The notes under the pieces: generated by a model | Told to the model about the DNA's origin: nothing | Databases searched by the model: none | What the model saw: the letters and a program-made list of their open reading frames with translations, nothing else | Assembly: GCF_963921235.1 (NCBI RefSeq) | Contig: NC_086108.1 | Location: 43,588,001-43,652,000, forward strand | Origin: Mobula hypostoma | Taxonomy: Eukaryota | Reading direction: 5' to 3' | DNA: 64,000 nt | Shown: in pieces, positions 16,980-62,878 of the stretch | Position numbering within the stretch: the stretch's first letter is position 1 | Layout: the number at the start of each line of letters is the position of its first letter | Position numbers and translations under genes: made by a program

Positions 16980-19828
16980 TCACCCGCCTTCACCCGCCTT
17001 CTCACCATAACCTTTGATGCCCTGGCTACTCAGATACCTATCAATCTCTGCCTTAAATACACCCAATGACTTGGCCTCCACTGCCGCCTGTCGCAACAAA
17101 TTCCATAGATTCACCGCCCTCTGGCTAAAAAAATTTCTTCGCATCTCTGTTCTGAGTGGGAGCCCTTCAATCCTTAAGTCATGCCCTCTCGTTCTAGACT
17201 CCCCCATCATGGGAAACAACTTTGCCACATCCACTCTGTCCATGCCTTTCAACATTTGAAAAGTTTCTATGTGGTCTTCCCTCATTCTTCTAAACTCCAA
17301 GGAATACAGTCCAAGAGCGGACAAACGTTGCTCATATGTTAACCCTCTCGTTCCCGGAATCATTCTAGTGAATCTTCTCTGTACCCTCTCCAACATCAGC
17401 ACATCCTTTCTTAAATAAGGAGACCAAAACTGCCCACAGTACTCCAAGTGAGGTCTCACCAGCACCTTATAGAGCCTCAACATCACATCCCTGCTCCTAT
17501 ACTCTATTTCTCTAGAAATGAATGCCAACATTGCATTCGCCTTCTTCACCACCGACTCAACCTGGAGGTTAACCTTAAGGGTATCTTGTACGAGGACTCC
17601 CAAGTCCCGTTGCATCTCAGAACTTTGAATTCTCTCCCCATTTAAATAATAGCCTGCCCGTTTATTTCTTCTGCCAAAGTGCAGAACCATACACTTTCCA
17701 ACATTGTATTTCATTTGCCACTTCTTTGCCCATTCTTCCAATCTATCCAAGTCTCTCTGCAGACTCTGTTTCCTCAGCATTACCGGCCCCTCCACCTATC
17801 TTCATATCATCAGCAAACTTAGCCACAAAGCCATCTATTCCATAATCCAAATCGTTGATGTACAATGTAAAAAGAAGTGGCCCCAACACGGACCCCTGTG
17901 GAAAACCACTGGTAACCGGCAGCCAACCAGAATAGGATCCCTTTATTCCCACTTTCTGTTTCCTGCCAATCAGCCAACCCTATCCATGTATGTAACTTTC
18001 CCATAATTCCATGGGCTCTTATCTTGTTAAGTAGCCTCATGTGTGGCACCTTATCAAAGGCCTTCTGAAAATCCAAATATACAACATCCACTGCATCTCC
18101 CTTGTCTAGCCTACTTGTAATTTCCTCAAAAAATTGTAATAGGTTTGTTGGGCAGGATTTTCCTTCAAGGAATCCATGCTGAGTTCTGCCTATCTTGTCA
18201 TATGCCTCCAGGTACTCTGTAACTTCATCCTTGACAATCGACTCCAACAACTTCCCAACCACCGATGTCAAGCTAACAGGTCTATAATTTCCTTTTTGCT
18301 TCCTTGCCCCCTTCTTAAATAGCGGAGTGACATTTGCAATCTTCCAGTCCTCCGGAACCATGCCAGAATCTATTGACTTTTGAAAGATCATCGCTAATGC
18401 CTCCGCAATCTCCACAGCTACTTCCTTCAGAACATGAGGGTGCATTCCATCTGGTCCGGGAGATTTATCTACCTTTAGACTATTCAGCTTCCTGAGTACT
18501 TTCTCTGTCGTAATTGTAACTGTGCACACTTCTCTTCCCTGCCACCCTTGAGTGTCCGGTATACTGCTGATGTCTTCCTCAGTGAAGACTGATGCAAAAT
18601 ACTCATTCAGTTCCTTCGCCATCTCCTTATCTCCCATTACAATTTCTCCAGCATCATTTTCTATTGGTCCTATATCTACTCTCACCTGTCTTTTACTCTT
18701 TATATACTTGAAAAAGCTTTTAGTATCCTCTTTGATATTATGTGCTAGCTTACTTTCATAGTTAATCTTTTCCCTTTTAATAACCTTCTTAGTTTCCTTT
18801 TGTAAGCTTTTAAAAACTTCCCAATCCTCTGTCTTCCCACTAATTTTTGCTTCCTTGTATGCCCTCTCCTTTGCTTTAACTTTGGCTTTGACTTCTCTTG
18901 TCAGCCACGGTTGCGTCCTTTTGCCATTCGAAAATTTCTTCTTTTTTGGAATATACCTGTCTTGCACTTTCCTCACTTCTCGCATAAACTCCAGCCACTG
19001 CTGCTCTGCCGTCCTTCCCACCAGTGTCCCTTTCCAGTCAACTTTGGCCAGTTCCTCTCTCATGCCACTATAATTTCCTTTACTCCACTGAAATACTGAC
19101 ACATCAGATTTCGGCTTCTGTTTTTCAAATTTCACAGTGAACTCCATCATGTTATGATCACTGCCTCCTAAGGGTTCCTTCACCTCAATCTCTCTAATCA
19201 CCTCGGGTTCATTACACAATACACAATCCAGTACAGCCGATCCCCTAGTGGGCTCAACAACAAGCTGTTCTAAAAAGCCACCTTGCAGACATTCTACAAA
19301 TTCTCTCTCTTGAGATCCAGTGCCGACCTGATTTTTCCAATCCACTCGCATGTTAAAATCCCCCACAATTATCATAACACTGCCCTTCTGACAAGCCTTT
19401 TCTATTTCCTGTTGTAATTTGTAGTCCACATCCCTGCAGCTGTTTGGAGGCCTATAAATAACTGCCACCAGGGTCCTTTCACCCTTGCGATTTCTTAGCT
19501 CAACCCATAAAGATTCTGCACCTTCCGATCCTATATCACCTCTTTCTAATGATTTAATATCATTTCTTACCAATAAAGCCACACCTCCCCCTCTGCCTAC
19601 CTTCCTATCCTTCCGATACACCATGTATCCTTGGATGTTCAGCTCCCAGGGACATGCATCCTTTAGCCAGGTCACAGTGATGGCCACGATATCATACCTG
19701 TCAATCTGTAGCTGTACGACAAGATCATCCACCTTATTCCTTATGCTGCGTGCATTTAAGTACAACACCTTAAGACCAGTATTTGGTACTTTTCGCTTTG
19801 ATTTCACTGTAACTTTATTGCACTGCAA
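16980..19828 (-). pseudogene. CR1 ORF2 (APE endonuclease and RT) broken by two frameshifts
   Basis: YLNARS, GDFN, SDH, YRPVSLTS, LDFQKAFD, GFPQGSVLGP and FADD spread over ORFs 17819-19828, 17743-17952 and 16980-17795. Confidence 0.9.
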
Positions 19829-20057
19829 CTCATCTCAATGGCTACAAATTTGCCCCACCACCTGCCTGTCTTTCCTGAGATCTTTACTGCTCACTATCTT
19901 AGATTTATTTCTGTTTTCCCCTTCCTCCGCTCTATCATTCCAGTTCCCATTCCCCTGCCAAATTAGTTTAAACCCCTCCCTAACAGCTCTATTAAACTTT
20001 CCCACTAGGATATTGGTCCCCTTCAGGTTCAGGTGTAACCTGTCCATTTTGCACAGG

Positions 20058-26186: not shown

Positions 26187-26244
26187 ATGGCCAGTTGGAG
26201 ACTGCCTCTGACGGCGGCACTCGCTCTGATGTTCCTGCTAACAG
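26187..26244 (+). CDS. VCAM1: VCAM1-like exon 1, signal peptide MASWRLPLTAALALMFLLTG
   Basis: Kozak accATGG about 90 nt after TATAAAA, hydrophobic leader, phase-1 donor at 26245. Confidence 0.85.
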
Positions 26245-29200
26245 GTTTCTAATTTCGTTTTACTATGCCTTAATATTTTCTAATTATCTGCATTTTTTTC
26301 TTATTTTGTTCAATGCCCATTAAAGTTTCTGCTGTTTGAAGAAGTATGTAAATAGTATTAAAGTTGTAAGTCTTTAACATTGTACTTGCAATGTTTTCGT
26401 AAAAATTGTAAACTTTCTAGCATTAAACGCGCAAACGTTTAAAATATGTTACTGCAGTTATTCGAGTAAGGTTATCAATTCTCCTCCTCTGCATCCAGGA
26501 TATGCCTTGGATTTGGAGCTAACCCCACAAAGTGTGTGGTCCCGGATTGGGGAGAAGGCAGTACTGAGCTGCCGCGCTAAGGACTGTCCGTCCCCTACAA
26601 TCAAATGGACTGTCGGATTCGATCGTCCCATAGGAGAAGTCAGCAATCAAGGCTCGGTGTCCACTCTCACCATCGACCCGGTCACCGTGCAGAACGAACA
26701 GCTGTACAGATGTACCGCAAAATGCGAGGGAAAAACAAAGTGGAAGGATGTCACTCTGAATGTTTATTGTGAGTATCAATTCGTCACCGAGAGGTAAACT
26801 TGTTGCATTAAATAAAAACAGAAACACTCAGCTGGTCAGACGGCTTCTGTGATGAAAGAGACTGAGTTAGCATTTCGTGACTGGAAGGTCATTAACCCGA
26901 GGATAACTCTGCTTCTCTCTCCACGGATACTGTCTGACTTCAGTATTCTAGTTTTATTTAGGATTTCCAACAACTGCGTTTTGTTTCGTTTTCGTTAAGA
27001 GTTTCGCACTATTTTTGAGTGCAAAGGTGAATGACGCGGATTATCAGAGGTACTCCGAGTCGTTCGCAATCGGGGATCGGGGATTGGGAATTGAGGTCTG
27101 CGCCACCGGGCTCATTCTCTTCTCAAACCTGTCTGATTGTGTGTCGCTGCAGCTCTGCCGGAGGCGGTCACCCTGGAGACGGTAGGGAGTTTGCAAGTCG
27201 GCAGGAAAGGCGCCGTGAAATGTGTCGTCCCCGATGTCTACCCCGTTGATTTGACAGTAGAGTGGGTGAATGAAACGGGAGTAATGAATACTCAAAGAGT
27301 CAACGAATACACCAGGGAAAAAAAGAAGGTGACCGTCACCTATGAATTGACCCCAGAATTGCGGCATTCCGGACAAAATCTTGTATGCCGAATCCGTTTG
27401 CGAAATGAGAAGCTTCAGGTCGAGGGAACGCTCACTCTGGATATTCATTGTAAGTGTCCAGACAGAGATTTCACTTTAAGCTTTTATACATTCAAAACCG
27501 CCTGTCTTTAACTCTCTAAATGATTCGATCTTCTTCTGCAGATCCTCCCAGAAAGATAAACATTTCCGCAGAGCCCTCTCTCACCGTGAGGAGAGGTCAG
27601 AATGCCTCGCTAACCTGTACCGCCGACGGCAATCCTCCTGTCCGCATCGTGTGGAGCAGGTCATCAGCTGACGGCTGGTCAGTGATAGCCGAGAATCAAA
27701 CTGCATACCAGTTTTTACCGACCCGCATCGAGAATTCAGGAACTTACCGCTGTGAAGCCAAAAATGAGCTGGGGAAAATAGCTACGGAGGTGGAATTTTG
27801 CGTTCAGGGTGCGTGGATCTTACTGATATAATGTTTCAATTTGAATGGATTAATGAATATTAAAATCAGAATCATAAAGCAGAAACAGGGCCTATGTCCC
27901 AACTCATGTATACTGTCCAAGGTGTATATCCAAGCTAGTCCCAGCTGCCTGCATTTGCCTCATATCTTTCTAAACACTGTACCTATTTAAATATCTTTTA
28001 CGCATTGTAATTGTACCCACCTCTGCCACTTCCTCTGGCAGCTGGTTCCATACCCCACCACCTTTTGTGTGGGATAAAGTGGCACCTTTGGTTTCCCTTT
28101 TAAATCTCCGCTCTCTCACCATAATCTTCCAGTCTTGAATGCAGCACCAACACAGAGCCCGTGTACAAGAAGGGCCAGAGTCGCCTCTACTTTCTGAGGA
28201 GACTGAGGTCCTTTGGAGTATGCAGGTCTCTCCTTCACATGTCCTGCCAGCCTGTTGTCGCCAGTACAATCTTCTATGCGGTGGTGTGCTGGGGCAATGG
28301 CATCAACACGGGTGATGCCAACAGGCTCAATAATCTGTTTAGAAAGGCTGGCTCTGTTATAGGAGTCAAACTGAACACATTAGAGACTGTGATATAACAA
28401 AGGACCCTATGGAAAATCTTGGCAATTCTGGACAATGTTTCTCACCCTCTGTATGCCACCTTGGCTGAAGAGAGGAGCTCCTTTAGTATTACAGTAAGAC
28501 AATTGCACTGCTCGGAAGAGCGCTATAAAGGGTAGCTCTTACCTTCGGCCATTACGCTCTATAATGGGTCAACCTATAGCTGAAAAGTGATGATCCCCTC
28601 CGTTAGCCTTTTTGAGATAACTTATTTTTTATTTTTTCTTCTCTTCTAATATTTCTATACTTGGATATCTCTGCACTTGTAGTGTTACTGTAATTCTGTA
28701 ATTTCCTAGGATCAATAAATATATAAAAGACTGCCGTAGAATACGGCTATCCACCCTATCTATGCCCCGACCCTCGTGATTACATTCACCTCAGGCTACT
28801 ACACTCCAGGGAAAAACGTCCCTGGAACACAGGACTTTTTAAAAAATAGTTATTAATTTCACCCTGTTTCTTTCGTCAGGCCGCCCCAGCGACACCAGAC
28901 TCTCTGTCACACCTTCTGCGGTGAGGGAGGGAGACAATGTCACAATCAGCTGCACAACCCACTCAAACCCACCTGCCCATCTTGTGCTGACGAGAAATTC
29001 GACAAGTGGATGGATGGAGCTGAAGTCGGAGAATGGAATATTCTCTATTAGTGCTGTTCAGCCGGATGATGGAGGATGGTATCAATGTGAGGCCAGCAAT
29101 GATCTGGGAAGGCAGATTATTCACACAGAACTCAATGTGCAATGTATGTATGAACATTAATCAGCTGCTTACAGAATGTCAATGTGGAAAATTCATTCAA

Positions 29201-32200
29201 ATTGTTATGGGAAGGAAAAGAATGATCTTAATTTATCAAAGAGCCACACATGGTAGTCTAGCATTTAGCACAACATTTACAACAGTCAGTTATAAGATTA
29301 GGGCATGATTCCCACTGCTGTCTGCAAGGAGTTTGTACATTCTCCCCGAGACCACGTGGGTTTCCTCCACGTTCTCCAGTTTCCTCCCACATTCCAAAGA
29401 CATACAAGTTAGGTTAGTGAGTTGTGGGCATGCTATGTTGGCGCCAGAATTGTGGTGACGTTTACGGGCTGCCCAGCGCAATCTTTGCTGATTTGATTGG
29501 ACACAGTACGACACATTGCACTGTATGTTTCAATGCATGTGTGACAAATAATAAAGCTAATCTCATTTTAAAATTCTTACCATTCAAGCCTTTGTAAAGT
29601 ACTATCACACCAACCAAGTACCTTAGACAAATAATCATTCTAGTAACGAATTGTGTGATAATAAGCTGGCAGTCAGGTTACTCTAATGTTGTTTGAGGGG
29701 TAAGTATTGGGTGGGAGTCTGGAACATACAGGGGAGAGCTGTAATGCTTTATACTCAATATGGTATTATAGTAGCTTTTATGTAAACTGGAGTGGATCTT
29801 AATTTAAATATTTTAAACAACCCACTTTTAACTGTCTAAATGATACTACTGTATCTTCTTATTCTGCAGATCTTCGTAAAACACTAAGCATTTCCGCAAA
29901 ACCCTCACTCACTGTGAGGGAAGGTCAGAATGCCTCGCTAACCTGTAGTGCCAACAGCAGTTCTCCTGTCACCATCGTGTGGAGCAAGTTATCAGCCGAG
30001 GGCTGGTCAGTGATAGCCGAGGATCAAGCTGCCCTTCAGCTTTCACAGGCCCGGATCGAAAATTCAGGAATCTACCGCTGTGAAGCCAAAAATGAGCTGG
30101 GGAAAATAGCTACGGAGGAGGAATTTCACGTTGAGGGTGCGTGGATCTTACTGATATACTGTTTCATTTTGAATGGATTAATTAATGAATATTAAAGTCA
30201 GAACCATAAAGCAGAAACAGGGCCTTTGTCCCAATTCATGTATACTGTCCAAGGTGTGTATCCAAGCTAGTCCCAGCTGTTGGCATTTGCCTCACATCTC
30301 TCTAAACACTGTACCTACTTAAATGACATTTACGCATTGTAATGCTACCCGCCTCTGCCACTTCCTCTGGCAGCTGGTTCCATAACCAACCATCTTTTCT
30401 GTGGGATAAAGTTGCACCTTGGGTTTCCCTTTTAAATCTCTGCTCTCGCACCATAAACTTCTAATTTTAGACTGCCGTACCTTGGAAAGAAGAATGCAGC
30501 CATCCATCTTATCCACGCCCCTCATGATTACATACACCTCAGACCCCTACACTCCAGGGAAAAACATCCCTGGAACACATTTATTAATTTCAGTCCGTTT
30601 CTTTTGTCAGGCTGCCCCAGCGACACCAGACTCTCTGTCACACCTTCTGCGGTGAGGGAGGGAGACAATGTCACAATCAGCTGCACAACCCACTCAAACC
30701 CACCTGCCCATCTTGTGCTGAGGAGAAATTCAACAAGTGGATGGATGGAGCTGAAGTCGGAGAATGGAATATTCTCTATTAGTGCTGTTCAGCTGGATGA
30801 TGGAGGATGGTATCAATGTGAGGCCAGCAATGATCTGGGAAGGCAGATTATTCACACAGAACTCAATATCCAAGGTATGCATGAAAATTAATGTGCAGCT
30901 TCCAGAAAATTAATGTGAAAAAGTATCATGCAAAGTATTCTAGGAAGGAAAGAATGATTTTAAGATATAAAAGGGTCATGCATGGTAGTGTAACAGCACA
31001 TAACTTAAAAGCATTCAGGAGAGAATTGTACTGCTGTAAACTGAGTACATGTTATTACAGTATCTTTTATGTTAACTGGAATGGACCTTAATTTACCAAG
31101 ATGCAACTTCAACTGTAACATTCCCTCTAAGAAGAAATTGATTGCCTTTCTAGACCTTTAAATCTATGTCCTTGGACTGAGACATAAACCCAGAATTAGG
31201 TCATGATGAATATAGAAACTTAGAAACATAGAAAATATTCAGCACAATACAGGCCCTTCGGCCCACAAAGCTGTGCCGAACATGTCCCTACCTTAGAACT
31301 ACCTAAGCTTTACCCATAGCCCTCTATTTTCTAAACTCCATGCAGCCATCCAGGAGTCTCTTAAAAGACCCTATCGTTTCCACCTCCACCACCTCCGCCG
31401 GCAGCCCATTCCACGCACTCACCACTCTCTGCATAAAAAAGACTTACTCCTGACATCTCATCTGTACCTACTTCCAAGCACCTTAAAACTGTGCCCTCTC
31501 GTGCTAGCCATTTCAGCCCTGTGGAAAAGCCTCTGACTATCCACATGATCAATGCCTCTCATTATCTTGTACACCTCTATCAGGTCACCTCTCATCCTCC
31601 ATCGCTCCAAGGAGAAAAGGCCGAGTTTACTCAACCTATTCTCATAAGGCATGCTCCCCAATCCAGGCAACATCCTTGTAAATCTCCTCTGCACCCTTTC
31701 TATGGCTTCCGCGTCCTTCCTGTAGTGAGACGACCAGAATTGAGCACAGTACTTCAAGTGAGGTCTGACCAGGGTCCTATATAGCTGCAACATTACCTCT
31801 CAGCTCCTAAACCCAATCTCACAAATTGATGAAGGCCAATTCACCGTATGCCTTCTTAACCATAGAGTCAACCTGTATAGCAGCTTTGAGTGTCCTATGG
31901 ACTTGGACCCCAAGATCCCTCTGATCCTCCACACTGCCAAGTCTTACCATTAATACTATGTTCTGCCATCATATTTGACCTACCAATATGAACCACTTCA
32001 CACTTATCTGGGTTGAACTCCATCTGCCACTTCTCAGCTCAGTTTTGCATCCTATCAATGTCCTGTTGTAACCTCTCACAGCCCTCCACATTACCCACAA
32101 CACCCTCAACCTTTGTGTCATCAGCAAATTTACTAAGCCATCCCTCCACTTCCTCATCCAGGTCATTAAGAGGAGGAGTCCCAGAACAGATCCCTCAGGA

Positions 32201-33744
32201 ACACCACTGGTCACCAGCCTCCATGCAGAATATGACCCATCTACAACCACTCTTTGCCTTCTGTAGGCAAGCCAGTTCTGGATCCACAAAGCAATGTCCC
32301 CTTGGATCCCATGCCTCCTTACTTTCTCAGTAAGGGGTACCTTATCAAATGCCTTGCTAAAATCCATATATACTACATCTACGGCTCTACCTTCATCAAT
32401 GTGTTTAGTCACATCCTTAAAAAATTCAATCAGGCTTGTAAGGCACGAGCTACCTTTGACAAAGCCATGCTGACTATTCTTAATCATTTTATGCCTCTCC
32501 AAATATTCATAAATCCTGCCTCTCAGGATCTTCTCCATCAACTTACCAACCACAGAAGTAAGACTCACTGGCCTATGATTTCCTGGGCTATCCCTACTCC
32601 CTTTCTTGAATAAGGGAACAACATCCGCAACCCTCCAATCCTCCGGAACCTGTCCCATCCTCACTGATGATGCAAGGATCATTGCCAGAGGCTCAGCAAT
32701 CTCCTCCCTCGCTTCCCACAGTAGCCTGGGGTACATCCCTTCCGGTCCCAGTGACTTATCCAACTTGATGCCTTCCAAAAGCTCCAGCACATCCTGTTTC
32801 TTAATATCTACATGCTCAAGCTTTTCAGTCCACTGCAAGTCATCCCTACAATCGCCAAGATACTTTTCTGGAGTGAATACTGAAGCAAAGTATTCATTAA
32901 GTATCTCCACTATTTCCTCTGGTTCCATACATTCTTTTCCACGATCACACTTGATTGCTCCTATTCTCTCGTATCTTATCCTCTTGCTCTTCACATACTG
33001 GTAGAATGCCTTGGGGTTTTCCTTAATCCTGTCCACCAATGTCTTCTCATGGTCCCTTCTGGCTCTCCTAATTTCATTCTTAAGCTCCTTCCTGCTACCC
33101 TTATAATCTTCTAGATTCCTATCATTACTTAGTTTTTTGAACCTTTCATAAGCTCATAATCTATAAATATTACAGATTGTGATCTATAATGATAACAATT
33201 ATTGCTAAAATATATCTTCTCCAGCATCATTTCTGAATGTTTGGGCTCAGCCTTCCAAATAGGCCAATGAAAGAGAAGTCACCATTGGTTGCACTGTTCA
33301 TAACATTTCCTTCAACAGCTTCACCTGGAAGAAAGTAGAAAACAACAGCAAAGCTATTCTGCCCTTCATGCCCTTTACAATCCATAAAATAATCCCCAGT
33401 GATGCTGGCTTTTATGAGGTTGAAATAATCAGTAAATCTGGGTATCAAACAGGATTTGTGGAAATAAATGTTACTGGTCAGCTTAAGCAAAGACTGGGAC
33501 TATTGTGTTAAATGAGCATTGGTCCTCGGAAACTACATTTTACTGACTTTTTTTAAACACGGCCTCCTGTTTCTTTGCAGAACGAGATGTGGTAGTCGAA
33601 GCTAAGAGTCCCGTAGGAGTCATAGCACCAGCTTTCATAGGGGCAGCAGTGGGATCAGTTGGACTGGTGTTCTCTGGTCTATATTACGTCTATCGCAGAA
33701 TCAATTTAAAGAATTCATATCAAATGTCAAATGACATATTGTGA
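26187..33744 (+). CDS. VCAM1: VCAM1-like cell adhesion molecule, whole gene span (8 coding exons, 616 aa: signal peptide, 6 Ig domains, TM, short tail)
   Basis: Exons 26187-26244, 26499-26768, 27153-27449, 27542-27808, 28880-29143, 29870-30136, 30611-30874 and 33581-33744 join through GT-AG phase-1 introns into one open frame of 1851 nt. D1, D2, D7 and the tail resemble mammalian VCAM1 as recalled. Confidence 0.88.
26499..26768 (+). CDS. VCAM1: VCAM1-like exon 2, Ig D1 (integrin-binding type, four cysteines)
   Basis: LSCRAKDCPSPTIKWTVGFDRP...STLTIDPV...YRCTAKC shows the CxxxxC/CxxxC pattern of VCAM/ICAM/MAdCAM D1. Acceptor catccag, donor gtgagt. Confidence 0.93.
27153..27449 (+). CDS. VCAM1: VCAM1-like exon 3, Ig D2
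   Basis: SLPEAVTLETVGSLQVGRKGAVKCVVPDVYPVD resembles VCAM1 D2 (VKCSVADVYP). Acceptor tgcag, donor gtaagt. Confidence 0.92.
27542..27808 (+). CDS. VCAM1: VCAM1-like exon 4, Ig domain of D3/D6 type (copy A)
   Basis: LTCTADGNPPVRIVWSR...ENSGTYRCEAKNELG. Acceptor ttctgcag, donor gtgcgt. Confidence 0.92.
28137..28727 (+). mobile_element. Rex/Babar-like LINE 3' fragment in intron 4
   Basis: KKGQSRLYFLRRLRSFGV...FYAVVCWG, ends ggatcaataaa. Absent from the paralogous intron 6. Confidence 0.8.
28880..29143 (+). CDS. VCAM1: VCAM1-like exon 5, Ig domain of D7 type (copy A)
   Basis: VREGDNVTISC...LVLTRNSTSGWMELKSENGIFSI...DGGWYQCEASN resembles VCAM1 D7. Acceptor tcgtcag, donor gtatgt. Confidence 0.92.
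29270..29565 (+). mobile_element. V-SINE (HE1-like) in intron 5
   Basis: Core gtttgtacattctcccc...gtgggtttcctcc...tttcctcccacattccaaaga. Confidence 0.65.
29870..30136 (+). CDS. VCAM1: VCAM1-like exon 6, Ig domain of D3/D6 type (copy B)
   Basis: Same length as exon 4 (267 nt) and colinear with it. Open frame, intact splice sites. Confidence 0.9.
30611..30874 (+). CDS. VCAM1: VCAM1-like exon 7, Ig domain of D7 type (copy B)
   Basis: 264 nt, 7 differences from exon 5 by hand count. Acceptor ttgtcag, donor gtatgc. Confidence 0.9.
31215..33160 (-). mobile_element. 5'-truncated CR1 in intron 7
   Basis: RT ORF 31969-33039, C-terminal ORF 31458-31793 and a (tttcta..)n tail. Confidence 0.88.
33225..33476 (+). 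pseudogene. Degenerate seventh Ig exon (pseudo-exon or poison exon) of the VCAM1-like gene
   Basis: 252-nt phase1-1 segment between cttctccag and gtcagc reading SFLNVWAQPSK*ANEREVTIGCTVHN...FTWKK...FTIHKIIPSDAGFYEVEI...VEINVT. TAG at 33260-33262. Confidence 0.75.
33581..33744 (+). CDS. VCAM1: VCAM1-like exon 8, transmembrane helix and cytoplasmic tail
   Basis: Acceptor ttctttgcag, then ...VGVIAPAFIGAAVGSVGLVFSGLYYVYRRINLKNSYQMSNDIL*. The tail resembles VCAM1 RKANMKGSY. Confidence 0.9.
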
Positions 33745-33745
33745 C

Positions 33746-33756
33746 ATTAAAATAAA
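33746..33756 (+). terminator. Candidate proximal polyadenylation signal (ATTAAA overlapping AATAAA)
   Basis: Lies immediately after the stop codon. Usage unknown. Confidence 0.4.
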
Positions 33757-36011
33757 AGACTGAAAGAAGAGAACTTCCACTTCTAGCACAATCTAATCTC
33801 TGTTGCTGTGCTGTCAGGGCCAGTATGTTTGGACACCAGAAGGTGATATTTGTGGCATCATAAACATTTCTTAAAGGCATCACCAACAGCTGGTATCCAA
33901 GGAAGAGAAAGAAGAGCATATTTGAACTTTAGGCACTTTATTGTAAATAATCCTCAGAATTTACTGACTGTCTTGAAGGGAGTATTAGCTGGGGTATTCA
34001 TGTTGGAGGAAACGTAGCAGAAACATCTGCTCTAATGAAATTGTCTTTGGTATTGCTCACCCATGGCTCCCAGGCATATTTCAAACTGTTACCACTCACC
34101 TGTGAAACAAGCCTAGTTTTCAGATGCAACACACAAAATGTTGGAGGCACTCAGCCAGCCAAACATCATCTATGGAGGGAAATGAAGAGTCGCTGTTTCG
34201 GGCTGAGATCCTTCACTGGGACTTTTTTTTTCCTTCCATGGATGCTAGCTCACCAGCTGAGTTCCTCCAGCATTTTGTGTGTTGCATAAGATTTCCACCT
34301 TCTGCCTTGGGTGACTTGGGAGCAAAACACTTTACACTGACTATTCTACAGTTTAAGTTATTTGAACTCATGAAGAGTTTGTGATTATCTGTATTTTTTT
34401 AAAACTGCTACTGCTTCCCCTCAATACCTGTGAACTTCTGCTATTATTCCTAACACATTGAACCAGGGACACTGTCTGTTATGGACGAGATCTGGGAACT
34501 GTGTACTGGGTTAGGTACAGGGTGCGAGGCACCATTGGCTGCTTGCCAGAGTTTTCTGAAGCCGGAACTGGAGGTGTTAACTCCAGTTGGCTTAGTTTAA
34601 AATGTACTTTTAAACTAAGCCAACAAGTGAGATGCAGACCGAGTCCTGATGCAGGATTTTGACCAGAAATGTTGACAATTCCGTTCCCCCCACCACATAG
34701 ATGCTGCTTGGCTCATTGAGTTCGTCCAGCAGTCTTGTGTCTCCAAATCAAACTCAATTTACGTTGCACTCAACACAGGTTGATTCGATCATTTTTTCGC
34801 AAGATGTTAAAGCAGGCAATAATGTAAACTAAGCAACCTAATAAAAATAAAATCCAAACTGTTTTGAATTAATACATAATTCAAATTAAGTAACTTTTTT
34901 CCACAATTAGAATGCGTTATGTTCACCTTCATTGCTGTCAAAATTTGAAAATGTTTCAAGGAGGAAGCCAGGGTTTTCATTGATGGTTCCAATGAGTTGA
35001 AACAAAATGTCCGTGTTAAGTCTTCCCTGATGTGGTTTGTTTATCTCCAGTTACTAGATCTCACTATGTGTAAGTTCTCCACTGTTGTTGAAGCAATTAT
35101 GTTGCAAGTTGAGGGAGTTTGTACTGTAATGCATTGGTGAATAATAAAACCGCCTTCAACTACAACTATGCCGGGAATGCAGTTATCTATCAGTCTCCAG
35201 GGGAAGACTCTTAAGCAAGGGCAGAATTGTAAAAAGACACTTAACGGTGATTGAATCCGCGGTGGACAGATATTGATTCTGCGAGCTCCCGCAGGACTAT
35301 ATGTCAGCAAAGGAGAAAAGCCTTAAACAGGTCAATGTCGGCAACGGAGAAGAGAAGCCTTGAAACTAGGTCAGTCTGTTCTGTAAGTTCAGCTAGGTTA
35401 TTGAGAGAGGCTAGCGGATCAGCGGCAAGTGTGGCGGTGCTAGAAGCCCTGGTTAGGGCCGAAGCATCGCTAGCTAAGGTGTGGTTTGCACTAAGAGAAC
35501 TTGACATTGAAGTGAGACAGGCTGGAAGCCACATTAGAGACACTGCAACATAAAATGGAGGCGGAGGCGGCTTTAGCCGAAGCCAGTCTTTGTGGTGGGC
35601 ATAGAGCGTCTAGCTGACAATGATGATGTTAGGTCAAACTCACCTTGTCATTCCGCTGAGAGGAATACCAGGTATGTTCAAGACCAGTCGGCTTATGCTC
35701 ATACCCACCCACCAGCAAACACTGAAGACTTAGGCCAGCCAATCAGGACTGAAAGGGATTGTTCCCCTTTCACAGGATAACACCCTGCAACTCGACACCT
35801 TTTATGCAAACGGAACAGAACGAAGACCGCATCCCTCACATGCTTGTACTTGTATGAGACAGGCAGATATCTCAAAACACTTAATGACTGGCCACTCACT
35901 TGCCCACTAAGATGATGGAGAGATGTCATGTAGTAAGAGAAGACTCCAACACTCCTACATACCATGGTACAACACAAACACGAGGAAATCTGCAGATGCT
36001 GAAATTTCAAG

Positions 36012-39098: not shown

Positions 39099-41559
39099 GC
39101 TTTTACAAGCTAGCGTGGGCCTGGCACGTGAATTATTTTGCCCGGCGTGAAAAGTTGATCGATTTTTAGTGAGAAAATGACCTCGTCCAGAGGAATTAAT
39201 TGAAAGTGACATGCAGAAAGAAATAAGTGGGGATGAGGACGACAGCAGTTCATCGAAGGAGTGCGAAGGCGAAGTAGAGGAACAAGGAATGGAGCGGGAT
39301 TTGGAAGAGAACGTGGATGAAACTGCTCTTAGCGCTAGTGGGAATTCTGTTAGTGATGTCAGCCAACAGCCTGAGGAAGGACCCTGTTGGCTAGCATTGA
39401 AAAAATACCCTTCGCTGCTCGCAACAGTTTGGCAATCAGCAAAGGAGTTTTATTCGTGGCTGGTTTGACCTGCTGGAATATTCGATGACGAAAGATACTA
39501 CGTTCTGCTTCGCATGCAGGCATTTCCTGTGCGGAGGACATGGGTTCCATTCTGAGTCTACCTCCATTGTCACCGGTTACTGCAACTGGCGGAAAGCTGC
39601 AACAGCTTTCATAACCCACCATGTAAATGCAGCTCATAAGTTTGCTATGGAGGCATGGGCTGAATTCAGATTGTGAAAACAAGATGATTCAAGATTGGGA
39701 AATATGCTTGACAAAGGACATGCAAAGATTGTCCAAGAAAATCGTGAGTATATGAGAGATGTGGTTGAGTCTCTATGCTATACTGCGTGCCAAGGCATTG
39801 CCCAGCGAGGATACAGGGAGGATGATGGATCTGGCAATAAGGGAAACTTTGTTGAGTTGCTCATTGTAATTGGACAGTGTGATAAGACTCTAGCTAAATA
39901 AAAGAGGACAATCCTGGAAATGCAAAAAACACCCATCACGATATCCAAAATGAAATTATGGGTATTATGTCAGACATGGTCAGACGTCAGATAAGTGCAG
40001 AAATCAAAGAGGCTGAACATTTTGCCATCATGGTGGATGAAAGTAAAGACGAGTAAAAAGAAGCAAATATCAGTGGTGGTGTGGTATTTCAATAACGAAA
40101 CAGTGCTTGAAGAATTCTTGTACTTCACTCCAGCAGAATGGTTGGACGCAGAGTCGCTTCTTAAAAGCATTGAACAGACACTCGCCCAGTGTGTTTTGAT
40201 AAGAACGTGTGTATAGGTCAGTGTTATGACGGGGCGGCAGTGATGCCTGGGTGCAATAAGGGGGTACAAGAGAGGTTCAGGAAAGAGGTCCCGCAGGCAT
40301 TATATATACACTGCCAAGCTCACAGACTTAATCTTGTTTTAGTGGATGTTGTGAGCAATATACAACAAGCAGGCGGGTGAGTTTTTTGAAACTGTGCAGT
40401 TGCTTTACAACTTCTTTTCATACTCTGTTGCCCACGATCTTTTCATGAAGAAACAGAGAGAACTGGAATCAACTGCACAGCCCGTGGAGTTGAAGAAATT
40501 GTCAGATGCACGCTGGGCATGGCAGTATACAGCTTTGTGGGCTATAAGGAAATCACTCCCTGCCATTCTAGCTACACTACAGGATATTATGTGTCAACCA
40601 AATGCACCGAGGAAAACGGAGGCCAGAGCTGTAAATGGACTGATTGACGAGCAGTTTGCTTTACTTCTCACTCTGAGGATTTATTCCGAGTCACCAAGTT
40701 CATGTCAGACCAGCTACAATCTCCCAGTTTGGAGCTTTCATCCGCTGTGGACTTGGCTCAGTCTGTTATCGATGCACTCTCAGCAAATCGGGGAGAGGAA
40801 TCATGGAGAGAAATTCAGACAAGAGCTAGGGACCTGTGCATCAAGGCCGGTATACACAGCAGACCACATGAAAGGAGACAGGCCCAGCCACCCCGCCGTC
40901 TACATGATTTTGTCGTTGAGGCCCAAACTGAACGCACACCTGTCACATCCTCTGATGACCTACGCAAGCGCTTTTTCTATCCAGTTATAGACAGACTTCT
41001 GACTGAAATGAAAAGACGGTTCTCAATTGAGACTGGGAGTGTACTGACTGGAGTTTCAGCATTGAGTCCCAAACACAAGTTTTTCCTAGACAAGAATTGT
41101 CTTTGGCCAATGGCCCAATACTTTGGAGTGACTGAAGTGAACCTGACCGCAGAGGTACATCAGGTTCGGCGTCTGCTGTAAATAAAACAAAAGCAAGGAC
41201 AGACAGTGAATGACACAGTGGAATTTCTAGCTCTAATGAGACCCTACCGCGATGCAGTTATAGATTTATATAAACTAATCTGCATATCACTGACTTTGCT
41301 TGTTACATCTGCCTCATGCGAACGGAGTTTCTCTTGCCTCAGACGCCTCAAAAACTACCCAAGGAACAGCAGCGGCGATGCTCGGAACAGCAACTTGACC
41401 CTGTTGGCCATAAACAGCCGGAGGACCAAAGCACTTGACATCCAGAAAATCATTGAAGCTTTCACCACCGGTCACAACAACAGATGGATTGTGCTTCTCT
41501 GAAAACATCAATGGTGAGTACAGTTGATTTTTTTTTAAATTTGGGCCAAGACTAATGCT

Positions 41560-61283: not shown

Positions 61284-61598
61284 ATGGAGGCTGAGGAATT
61301 TATAAAGGCGCCGATCTTGGAGGCATTAGAGGATGCCAGGAAATCGGAATTGGTAGCTGTGGCCAAACGGTTGAATCTTGCTAAGGGGAAGTCGACAATG
61401 AGGAGAGAGGAGATACACAGAGCCATTGTAGAGCACTATGTATCTAAAGGTGTGTTTCCCCAAGGCGAGCTGGAGGTGGTGTCTATTGAAAAACCTGCTG
61501 GAGACGCGGTACAGGTGCAGCTTGAAAAGCTGAGACTCAAGCACGAGTTCCGGGTACGGCAGTTGGAGCGAGAAGAGAAGCAGAGAGAGTTAGAAAGG

Positions 61599-61632
<34 letters not shown>

Positions 61633-62878
61633 CTGGAGCGAGAGGAGAAACAGAGGGAAAGGGAATTCGAGCTGGAGAAGTTAAAGATAAGGGCAGAGCA
61701 GGGGCTCGTGCCGAACCAAGGTGGAGGGTTCCGGGCGACCCAGGAGGTTAGGCTGGTTCCCCCATTTGACAATACCGACGTGGATCGGTACTTTCTCCAT
61801 TTCAAAAAAGTTGCTATAAGTCAGGACTGGCCGAGGGATAAGTGGGTTGTTTTGCTTCAGAGTGTACTGAAAGGGAAAGCCCAAGAAGCTTACTCAGCTT
61901 TGTCCGCGGAAGATGCCCAGAGGTATGAGGTGGTGAAAGAGGCCATCCTCAGGATTTATGAGTTGGTCCCGGAGGCATACCGGCAGAGGTTCCGGAATGC
62001 GAGGAAGCAGTGGGACCGCACGTATTTAGAGTTTGCCCGTGAGATGCAGACATATTGTGAGCGTTGGTGCGCCTCGAAGGGGGTAGAGGGGGATTATGAC
62101 AGACTGCTACAGCTGATCCTGATTGAACAGTTTAAAGGTTGTGTCCCTGAGGGTATGAGACCCTACCTAGATGAGAAAGAGGCAGCCACGTTAGCCGCAA
62201 CTGCTAAGTTAGCGGATGAATATGCGTTGATGCATAAAATGAAGTTTTCCCCGAGTAAAGGCTACCAGAAGGGTAGTCAGGACGGCGGGGAAAGCCCGCC
62301 GGAAAAGTCAGAAAGTAAGCCGGGGACTAGTGAGAAGGATAAGGTAGACTGGGAGCAGTCTGGTAGGAAGTCTCCTGGGGTCGTCTGTTATAATTGCGGG
62401 AAAGTCAGACACTTTGCGTCCAGGTGCTTTGCCCCAAAGAAGGAGACGGGAAAAGGAAAAACGGCGATTTTGACTGGCTGTATCGAGCTGGTAAACGAAC
62501 CGCTAGGGAAGGACAGGTCTGCCAAAGTTCAGGAAGGGCGCGAGAAGTTTATCTCGGCCGGATTGGTGTCAGTGAAGGAGGGGTTAAAACCAGTTCCAGT
62601 CCGGATCTGGAGAGACACGGGAGCGTGTCAGTCACTAATACTGAAGAGTGTATTAGAGTTTAGCTCAGAGACCCAGACTGGGGAGTTCAAGGTCAAAAGG
62701 TATTGGAGAAGGGACAGAGACAGTCCCTTTGCACCAGGTACACTTACAAAGTAACCTGGTCTCTGGATTAGTCACAATCGGGGTGAGGTCCGAATTACCG
62801 ATGAAAGACGTGGAAGTCTTGCTCGGTAATGACGTCGCCGGGGGAATCGTGTTCCCAGCCGTGAGATTGACAGGTCAG
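61284..62878 (+). pseudogene. Gmr1-like Gypsy gag (SCAN-like capsid, CCHC knuckle) and protease, two frameshifts
   Basis: EAYRQRFR...LILIEQF...LADEY, CYNCGKVRHFASRC, RDTGA and LLGND. Confidence 0.85.

Follow-up and report, generated by a model that had tools for sequence, protein, structure and literature searches.

A skipped and probably decaying membrane-proximal immunoglobulin exon in a VCAM1-like gene of Mobula hypostoma

Background

The closest counterparts of the exon analyzed here, termed D7, are the last immunoglobulin (Ig) domains of VCAM1-like proteins from sharks. In Pristiophorus, Cetorhinus (XP_078417788.1) and Rhincodon (XP_020390767.1) this domain lies before the transmembrane (TM) segment, as does D7, and the domains share 54-60% identity as well as the presence of the B-strand cysteine and the absence of the F-strand cysteine (DAGF/YYEV). 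The shark domain has an open frame and is included in the annotated protein, whereas D7 carries a stop codon, is skipped and is three residues shorter (83 versus 86 aligned residues).

Related domains are also found in mammals. VCAM1 of rabbit, hare and echidna has an optional eighth domain (828 versus 739 amino acids) that, like the last domain of the platypus protein (718 versus 629 amino acids), belongs to the same clade as D7, occupies the same position and can likewise be skipped as a block. The long and short database isoforms of these four species differ by exactly the D7-type domain; in rabbit this applies to one of the two short entries, the other being devoid of the preceding domain instead. 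An eight-domain form of rabbit VCAM1 was reportedly described by Cybulsky in 1991. In these mammals the domain is open and included in the long isoforms, whereas it is probably dead in the ray. The seven-domain VCAM1 proteins of primates, mole, deer mouse and Artibeus, which represent a lineage independent of the ray, carry a cysteine-containing D4-type domain directly before the TM segment and thereby resemble the ray protein of 616 amino acids. The latter is represented by the M. hypostoma entry XP_062920994.1, which comprises the same 616 residues as the product predicted upon skipping and is devoid of D7.

A further class to be considered is that of the poison exons of nonsense-mediated decay (NMD), which carry an in-frame stop codon more than 55 nt upstream of the last exon junction. 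D7 shares this position of the stop, located 214 nt upstream of the last junction, but differs from poison exons in that the stop is not conserved, excess conservation is missing and the exon is a former coding exon. The analysis described here was performed on a 64-kb window of the M. hypostoma genome, a term that denotes the whole stretch of 64,000 nucleotides.

Structure and product of the VCAM1-like gene

The exons assigned to the gene and the features of D7 and its surroundings are compiled in Table 1.

Table 1. Features of the VCAM1-like gene in the 64-kb window
Feature	Position	Strand	Basis or remark
Signal-peptide exon, ATG at 26187	26187..26244	+	joined gene model
D1 Ig exon	26499..26768	+	joined gene model
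D2 Ig exon, C1-set / ICAM D2-like	27153..27449	+	joined gene model
D3 Ig exon	27542..27808	+	joined gene model
D4 Ig exon	28880..29143	+	joined gene model
D5 Ig exon, tandem copy of D3	29870..30136	+	joined gene model
D6 Ig exon; 3' end matched by the loose 5' letters of the RNA contig	30611..30874	+
5'-truncated LINE with RT domain in the D6-D7 intron	~31210..33157	-	RVT_1 E=7.5e-15; ends read by eye, approximate
D7, putative pseudoexon; orthologous to the Ig domain next to the membrane in VCAM1, without F-strand Cys	33225..33476	+	252 nt, phase 1-1, shark homology, domain tree
Trp codon, open in the window, TAG in relative D	33242..33244	+	independent lesion in relative D
Premature TAG, one transition at 33261 from TGG (Trp)	33260..33262	+	also in relative B; relatives C and D have TGG
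AATAAA within the 3' end of D7 (E-I-N codons)	33463..33468	+	required by the soluble-form route; 95 such hexamers in the 64-kb window
TM and cytoplasmic-tail exon, coding part	33581..33744	+	RNA contig joins D6 straight to the TM exon

Joining of the exons without D7 yielded a membrane form of 616 amino acids with six Ig domains and a TM segment, which is identical letter for letter to the VCAM1-like RefSeq protein XP_062920994.1; the 90% cluster of this entry consists of two 616-residue proteins and nothing else. Inclusion of D7 resulted in 574 amino acids up to the stop, comprising six Ig domains and no TM segment. The joined models thus agree with the original prediction that skipping of D7 gives the six-Ig membrane form and that its inclusion ends translation before the TM segment. 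The deduced gene fits the VCAM1 family with respect to its signal peptide, the tandem array of phase 1-1 Ig exons, the single TM segment and the short tail. The D1 domain contains the pattern CRAKDC...GFDRP...CTAKC, which aligns with GTDNP and VMDNP of sharks, and accordingly shows two cysteine pairs of the C-x4/x3-C type together with an acidic CD-loop residue, a combination that is a feature of the VCAM1 family. A neighbouring gene was not identified within the 64-kb window.

The D5-D6 region (29827-30995) is a tandem duplicate of D3-D4 (27507-29263) with flanks that are approximately 85% identical; the exon identities amount to 97.3% for D4 versus D6 and 83.5% for D3 versus D5. The duplication is also present in stingray proteins, yet D4 and D6 of the window pair with each other in the domain tree, which, together with their identity of 97.3%, suggests gene conversion between the two exons. 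In the Hemitrygon and Hypanus proteins the TM segment is preceded by a truncated D4-type segment, about 49 residues long, which is present in Hemitrygon isoform X1 and absent from X2 and appears to be a second stalk exon in decay. In shark proteins, by contrast, the D4 type is repeated one to three times, and a D3-D4 pair is the difference between two chimaera entries. The length of the VCAM1 stalk is very labile.

Two observations concern the 3' end of the gene. In relative C, nine extra letters at 33646 represent a short duplication in the TM exon that adds three residues to the TM region. An AATAAA motif is located at 33751-33756 just past the stop codon, and the RNA contig continues beyond 34140, so that this motif does not represent the only 3' end.

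Exon D7 and its ancestry

The D7 segment comprises 252 nt in phase 1-1, the same phase as that of the six upstream Ig exons, and is bordered by ...cttctccag at the acceptor and gtcagc at the donor, i.e. by AG/GT ends. The TAG at 33260-33262 is the sole stop codon in its frame, and the translation contains the motifs VTIGC, FTWKK and DAGFYEV, with valine in place of the F-strand cysteine. These properties, including the single in-frame stop, had been noted in the original prediction and were borne out by the sequence and its reading frame. The proposed Ig character was likewise recovered by Pfam Ig_3 when the stop was read as X (E=6.5e-4), a weak match of 20.6 bits versus a curated cutoff of 30, and none of 500 shuffled sequences equalled the alignment score of D7 against the D4 or D6 domain of the same gene.

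Several ways of rescuing the frame were considered and rejected. The six in-frame AG dinucleotides past the stop are preceded by 4-8 pyrimidines in 17 positions, compared with 10-15 at live acceptors, and use of either the TAG itself or the CAG at 33248-50 as acceptor would shift the frame. A compensated double frameshift near LPFMP, where an out-of-frame cysteine occurs, is unsupported, as Stegostoma has LPS in frame.

Database comparisons identified the counterparts of D7. In the VCAM1-like proteins of Pristiophorus and Cetorhinus, the Ig domain in last position is 60% identical to D7 and has an open frame (2 matches among 33 candidates; E=3.7e-31 and 7e-27). A full HMMER scan with D7 resulted in 38 matches, and names were checked for 10 of them. 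Eight of the ten named clusters represent VCAM1 or VCAM1-like proteins, namely those of whale shark, chimaera, paddlefish, gar, coelacanth, caecilian, Bombina and platypus, the remaining two being a hypothetical Hymenochirus protein and a CD22-like protein. The best-matching domain adjoins the TM segment in most of the named matches.

For further comparison, 40 VCAM1-type proteins were selected by hand, leaving out duplicates, CD22-like proteins and large unnamed multi-Ig matches; the composition of this set is biased by the queries. A D7-type domain ends 24 of these proteins, ranging from sharks to rabbit, and all 24 domains carry valine or isoleucine at the position of the F-strand cysteine. 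The domain is missing from the other 16 proteins, of which five are from rays and 11 are mammalian or unnamed. In a domain tree (45 domains, 84 columns), 15 cysteine-less rows including D7 were separated from 30 others with a branch support of 99/96, the cysteine-less side comprising the terminal Ig domains from sharks, chimaera, bony fish and tetrapods. D7 clustered with the last domains of sharks and chimaera (support 100/98), with a terminal branch of 0.52 versus 0.13-0.17 for three sharks. The identity of D7 to the shark domains (54-60%) compares with 39-66% for the live domains.

Since valine or isoleucine occurs in 24 of 24 proteins ending in a D7-type domain and the cysteine-less rows share one side of the tree, the missing F-strand cysteine is, as judged from these alignments, an old trait of the membrane-proximal domain and not damage. 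The absence of this cysteine, which had been reported correctly, can thus no longer be read as a sign of decay. The data further suggest that a cysteine-less, membrane-adjacent domain was the ancestral last domain of jawed-vertebrate VCAM1. None of the five ray proteins, representing four species, contains a D7-type domain, and the absence from the stingray proteins may be an annotation effect.

Lesions of D7 in related genomes

Four of the 23 sequencing runs listed, all in the form of contigs, were compared over positions 33160-34140: one run that is presumably RNA and those of relatives B, C and D. Relative B shows 18 differences and covers the whole stretch in one contig, and no other letter is listed at 33261; a second match of this relative, consisting of 36 letters with unrelated flanks, was set aside as chance. 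Relative C (42 differences, depth 4.33) and relative D (71 differences, depth 14.3) both have TGG at 33260-33262, and the stop of D7 aligns with a tryptophan in Pristiophorus. The stop is thus present in one of the three relatives compared. By sequence comparison, the ancestral codon at this position is TGG (Trp). If distance is taken to reflect branching order, which is an assumption, the TAG would have arisen after the split from relative C.

The possibility that a base error conceals CAG or GAG in a normal seven-Ig gene, as considered in the original prediction, is virtually excluded. A lone stop in an otherwise open frame would be expected from such an error, but the TAG is common to relative B, whose contig spans the whole stretch, and is therefore not an assembly error; moreover, the RNA contig skips D7 regardless. 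Four DNA runs hold 1.00 of the sampled words and are possibly the source of the assembly, so they do not count as independent.

Relative D carries lesions of its own. These include a TGG to TAG change at 33242-44, deletions of six letters at 33279-86 and of seven letters at 33371-78, which leave 239 nt and cause a frameshift, and a TAT to TAA change at 33443-45. Among the changes listed between the window and relative D, 3 of 12 clean changes in D7 are synonymous (neutral expectation 0.21-0.26), five listed changes beside gaps having been dropped as alignment noise before this count, and 7 of 11 are synonymous in the TM exon. The resulting non-synonymous to synonymous ratios of 9:3 in D7 versus 4:7 in the TM exon are not significantly different among the changes listed (P=0.10). 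The substitution pattern of D7 in relative D is neutral-looking, with small counts. Relative C has TGG and six extra letters, and its D7 exon may be open. Among the changes listed, those occurring in at least two of the three relatives amount to 4 in the 252 nt of D7, 2 in the 104 nt of the intron and 9 in about 380 nt of the 3' UTR.

Because the lesions of relative D differ from that of the window and the annotated stingray proteins are devoid of the domain, the loss of function of D7 is probably older than the young TAG or happened twice. In this respect the initial notion of a recently killed domain has to be refined: homology, lesions and skipping all speak for a killed domain and the TAG is young, but the loss of the exon is probably older or occurred twice.

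Splicing of D7 and repeats in the adjoining intron

The only contig of the run presumed to be RNA starts at the TM acceptor, and its 30 loose letters at the 5' end match a single site of the window, the end of D6 (30843). This match indicates a direct D6-TM join and hence a spliced record. Four runs of organism A from one study, also presumed to be RNA, each hold 0.59 of the sampled words; the expected share is 0.56 without D7 and 0.80 with D7. The RNA evidence on the D6-TM join consists of the contigs of one run, in which rare variants are dropped, and lack of coverage on D7 was not counted. Rare inclusion of D7 may occur and would be compatible with the RNA contigs, since contigs drop rare forms.

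The splice sites of D7 resemble those of the live exons. The donor matches the U1 consensus at 6 of 9 positions (5-6 of 9 in live donors) and the acceptor has 11 pyrimidines in 17 positions (10-15 in live acceptors). A splice-killing change was not found in D7 of the window, in which both dinucleotides and the acceptor-proximal 67 nt are intact.

The LINE in the D6-D7 intron, which by its motifs is presumably of the CR1 type, ends about 67 nt before the D7 acceptor. The intron is 2350 nt long and would have measured roughly 400 nt before the insertion. No convincing target-site duplication of this LINE was detected, the only candidate being a 7-mer that is not present at both ends. The contigs of relatives B, C and D stop 41, 74 and 43 letters upstream of 33160, respectively.

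Other repeats were observed elsewhere in the window. An open LINE reading frame of 671 codons with endonuclease and RT domains is located upstream of the gene (17819-19834, minus strand), and its protein is 49% identical to the intronic LINE. The segment 34124-34287 shows an imperfect inverted self-match (72.7% over 165 nt), at which the contig of relative D diverges (34126), and probably represents two facing short repeats. A broken remnant of a hAT-type transposase lies at 40355-41502 on the plus strand (Pfam Dimer_Tnp_hAT, E=3.7e-8 on 41182-41499), and an open reading frame of 386 codons at 61594-62754 on the plus strand, which matches SCAN (E=3.2e-13) and, weakly, a zinc knuckle (E=0.004), is presumably the gag gene of an LTR retrotransposon.

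Discussion

The comparisons favour the view that D7 is a skipped, decaying pseudoexon, i.e. a vestigial exon, of a VCAM1-like gene, to which we assign a probability of about 0.8. A homologous coding exon exists in relatives, the exon carries a heritable lesion and it is skipped in the mRNA contig seen, as is expected of a pseudoexon. Among the observations that speak against decay are that the identity of D7 to the shark domains lies within the range of the live domains and that the splice sites are intact. According to this interpretation, D7 once coded for the ancient cysteine-less, membrane-proximal Ig domain of jawed-vertebrate VCAM1 and can be skipped without a change of frame because it is in phase 1-1. 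The ray mRNA seen in one contig splices D6 to the TM exon and gives rise to the membrane protein with six Ig domains. Skipping would have become the rule first, whereupon selection on D7 would have lapsed, either once in an ancestor of the rays or on two occasions. The lineages gained different lesions, the window and relative B the TGG to TAG change at 33261, and relative D another TAG together with a frameshift and a TAA. Rare inclusion would presumably be cleared by NMD, which as a rule acts on stop codons that precede the last junction by more than 50-55 nt and would thus recognize the stop of D7 at a distance of 214 nt. It might be speculated that the tandem duplication of D3-D4 restored the length of the stalk.

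As to the cause of skipping within the pseudoexon reading, the LINE insertion 67 nt upstream might have provoked it, with the stop coming afterwards. The proximity to D7 and the growth of the intron, from about 400 nt to 2350 nt, would fit this order of events, and the ends of all three relatives' contigs 41-74 letters upstream of 33160 provide a weak hint of a repeat that predates the TAG. We consider this cause unlikely, however, with the D7 acceptor and the preceding 67 nt being intact and the orthologous mammalian exon being skippable with no such insertion needed.

Two functional interpretations of the stop, both raised in the original prediction, gained no positive support, as the one RNA contig seen skips D7 and the stop is not conserved. 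It is improbable that D7 acts as a regulated poison exon whose inclusion would send the mRNA to NMD and thereby tune the level of VCAM. The stop lies far enough upstream of the last junction, the splice sites of the window are intact, early stops occur in relative D as well and steady-state RNA contigs would not show NMD targets; these points are opposed by the TGG of relatives C and D, by the redundant lesions and neutral-looking change in relative D and by the lack of excess conservation, the change rate of D7 being like that of intron and UTR among the changes listed. Similarly improbable is a route to soluble VCAM, in which D6 would be spliced to D7, translation would stop 12 residues on and the transcript would escape NMD via the AATAAA of D7 or a retained 104-nt intron. 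The inclusion form of 574 residues with six Ig domains and no TM segment, the AATAAA at 33463-68 and the occurrence of a stop within the first 12 codons in two lineages would all suit such a product, but this hexamer is found 95 times in the 64 kb and the RNA contig seen skips D7. Moreover, two of the three ancestral Trp codons (33260 read as TGG) are located at the exon start, and a single transition converts TGG into a stop, so that early stops are expected by chance. A more elaborate version has equally slim prospects: on two occasions in rays, TGG to TAG changes 18 nt apart would have made a terminal stop exon out of an optional exon of the stalk, and under inflammation a D6-D7 splice with an end at the AATAAA of D7 would yield a secreted six-domain VCAM decoy by splicing and not by shedding.

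Pseudoexons left by exon loss are of a known kind, and the product of the gene is already contained in RefSeq. In the literature searched, with subscription papers largely outside its coverage, no description of a D7-type exon in rays or of the rabbit domain was found. Should a regulated inclusion of D7 hold true, it would represent a splicing route to soluble VCAM. As a probable pseudoexon, D7 would document an ongoing domain loss whose lesions can be placed in order across four related genomes. Rays and several placental mammals seem to have lost the same optional last domain independently, which is of modest comparative interest.
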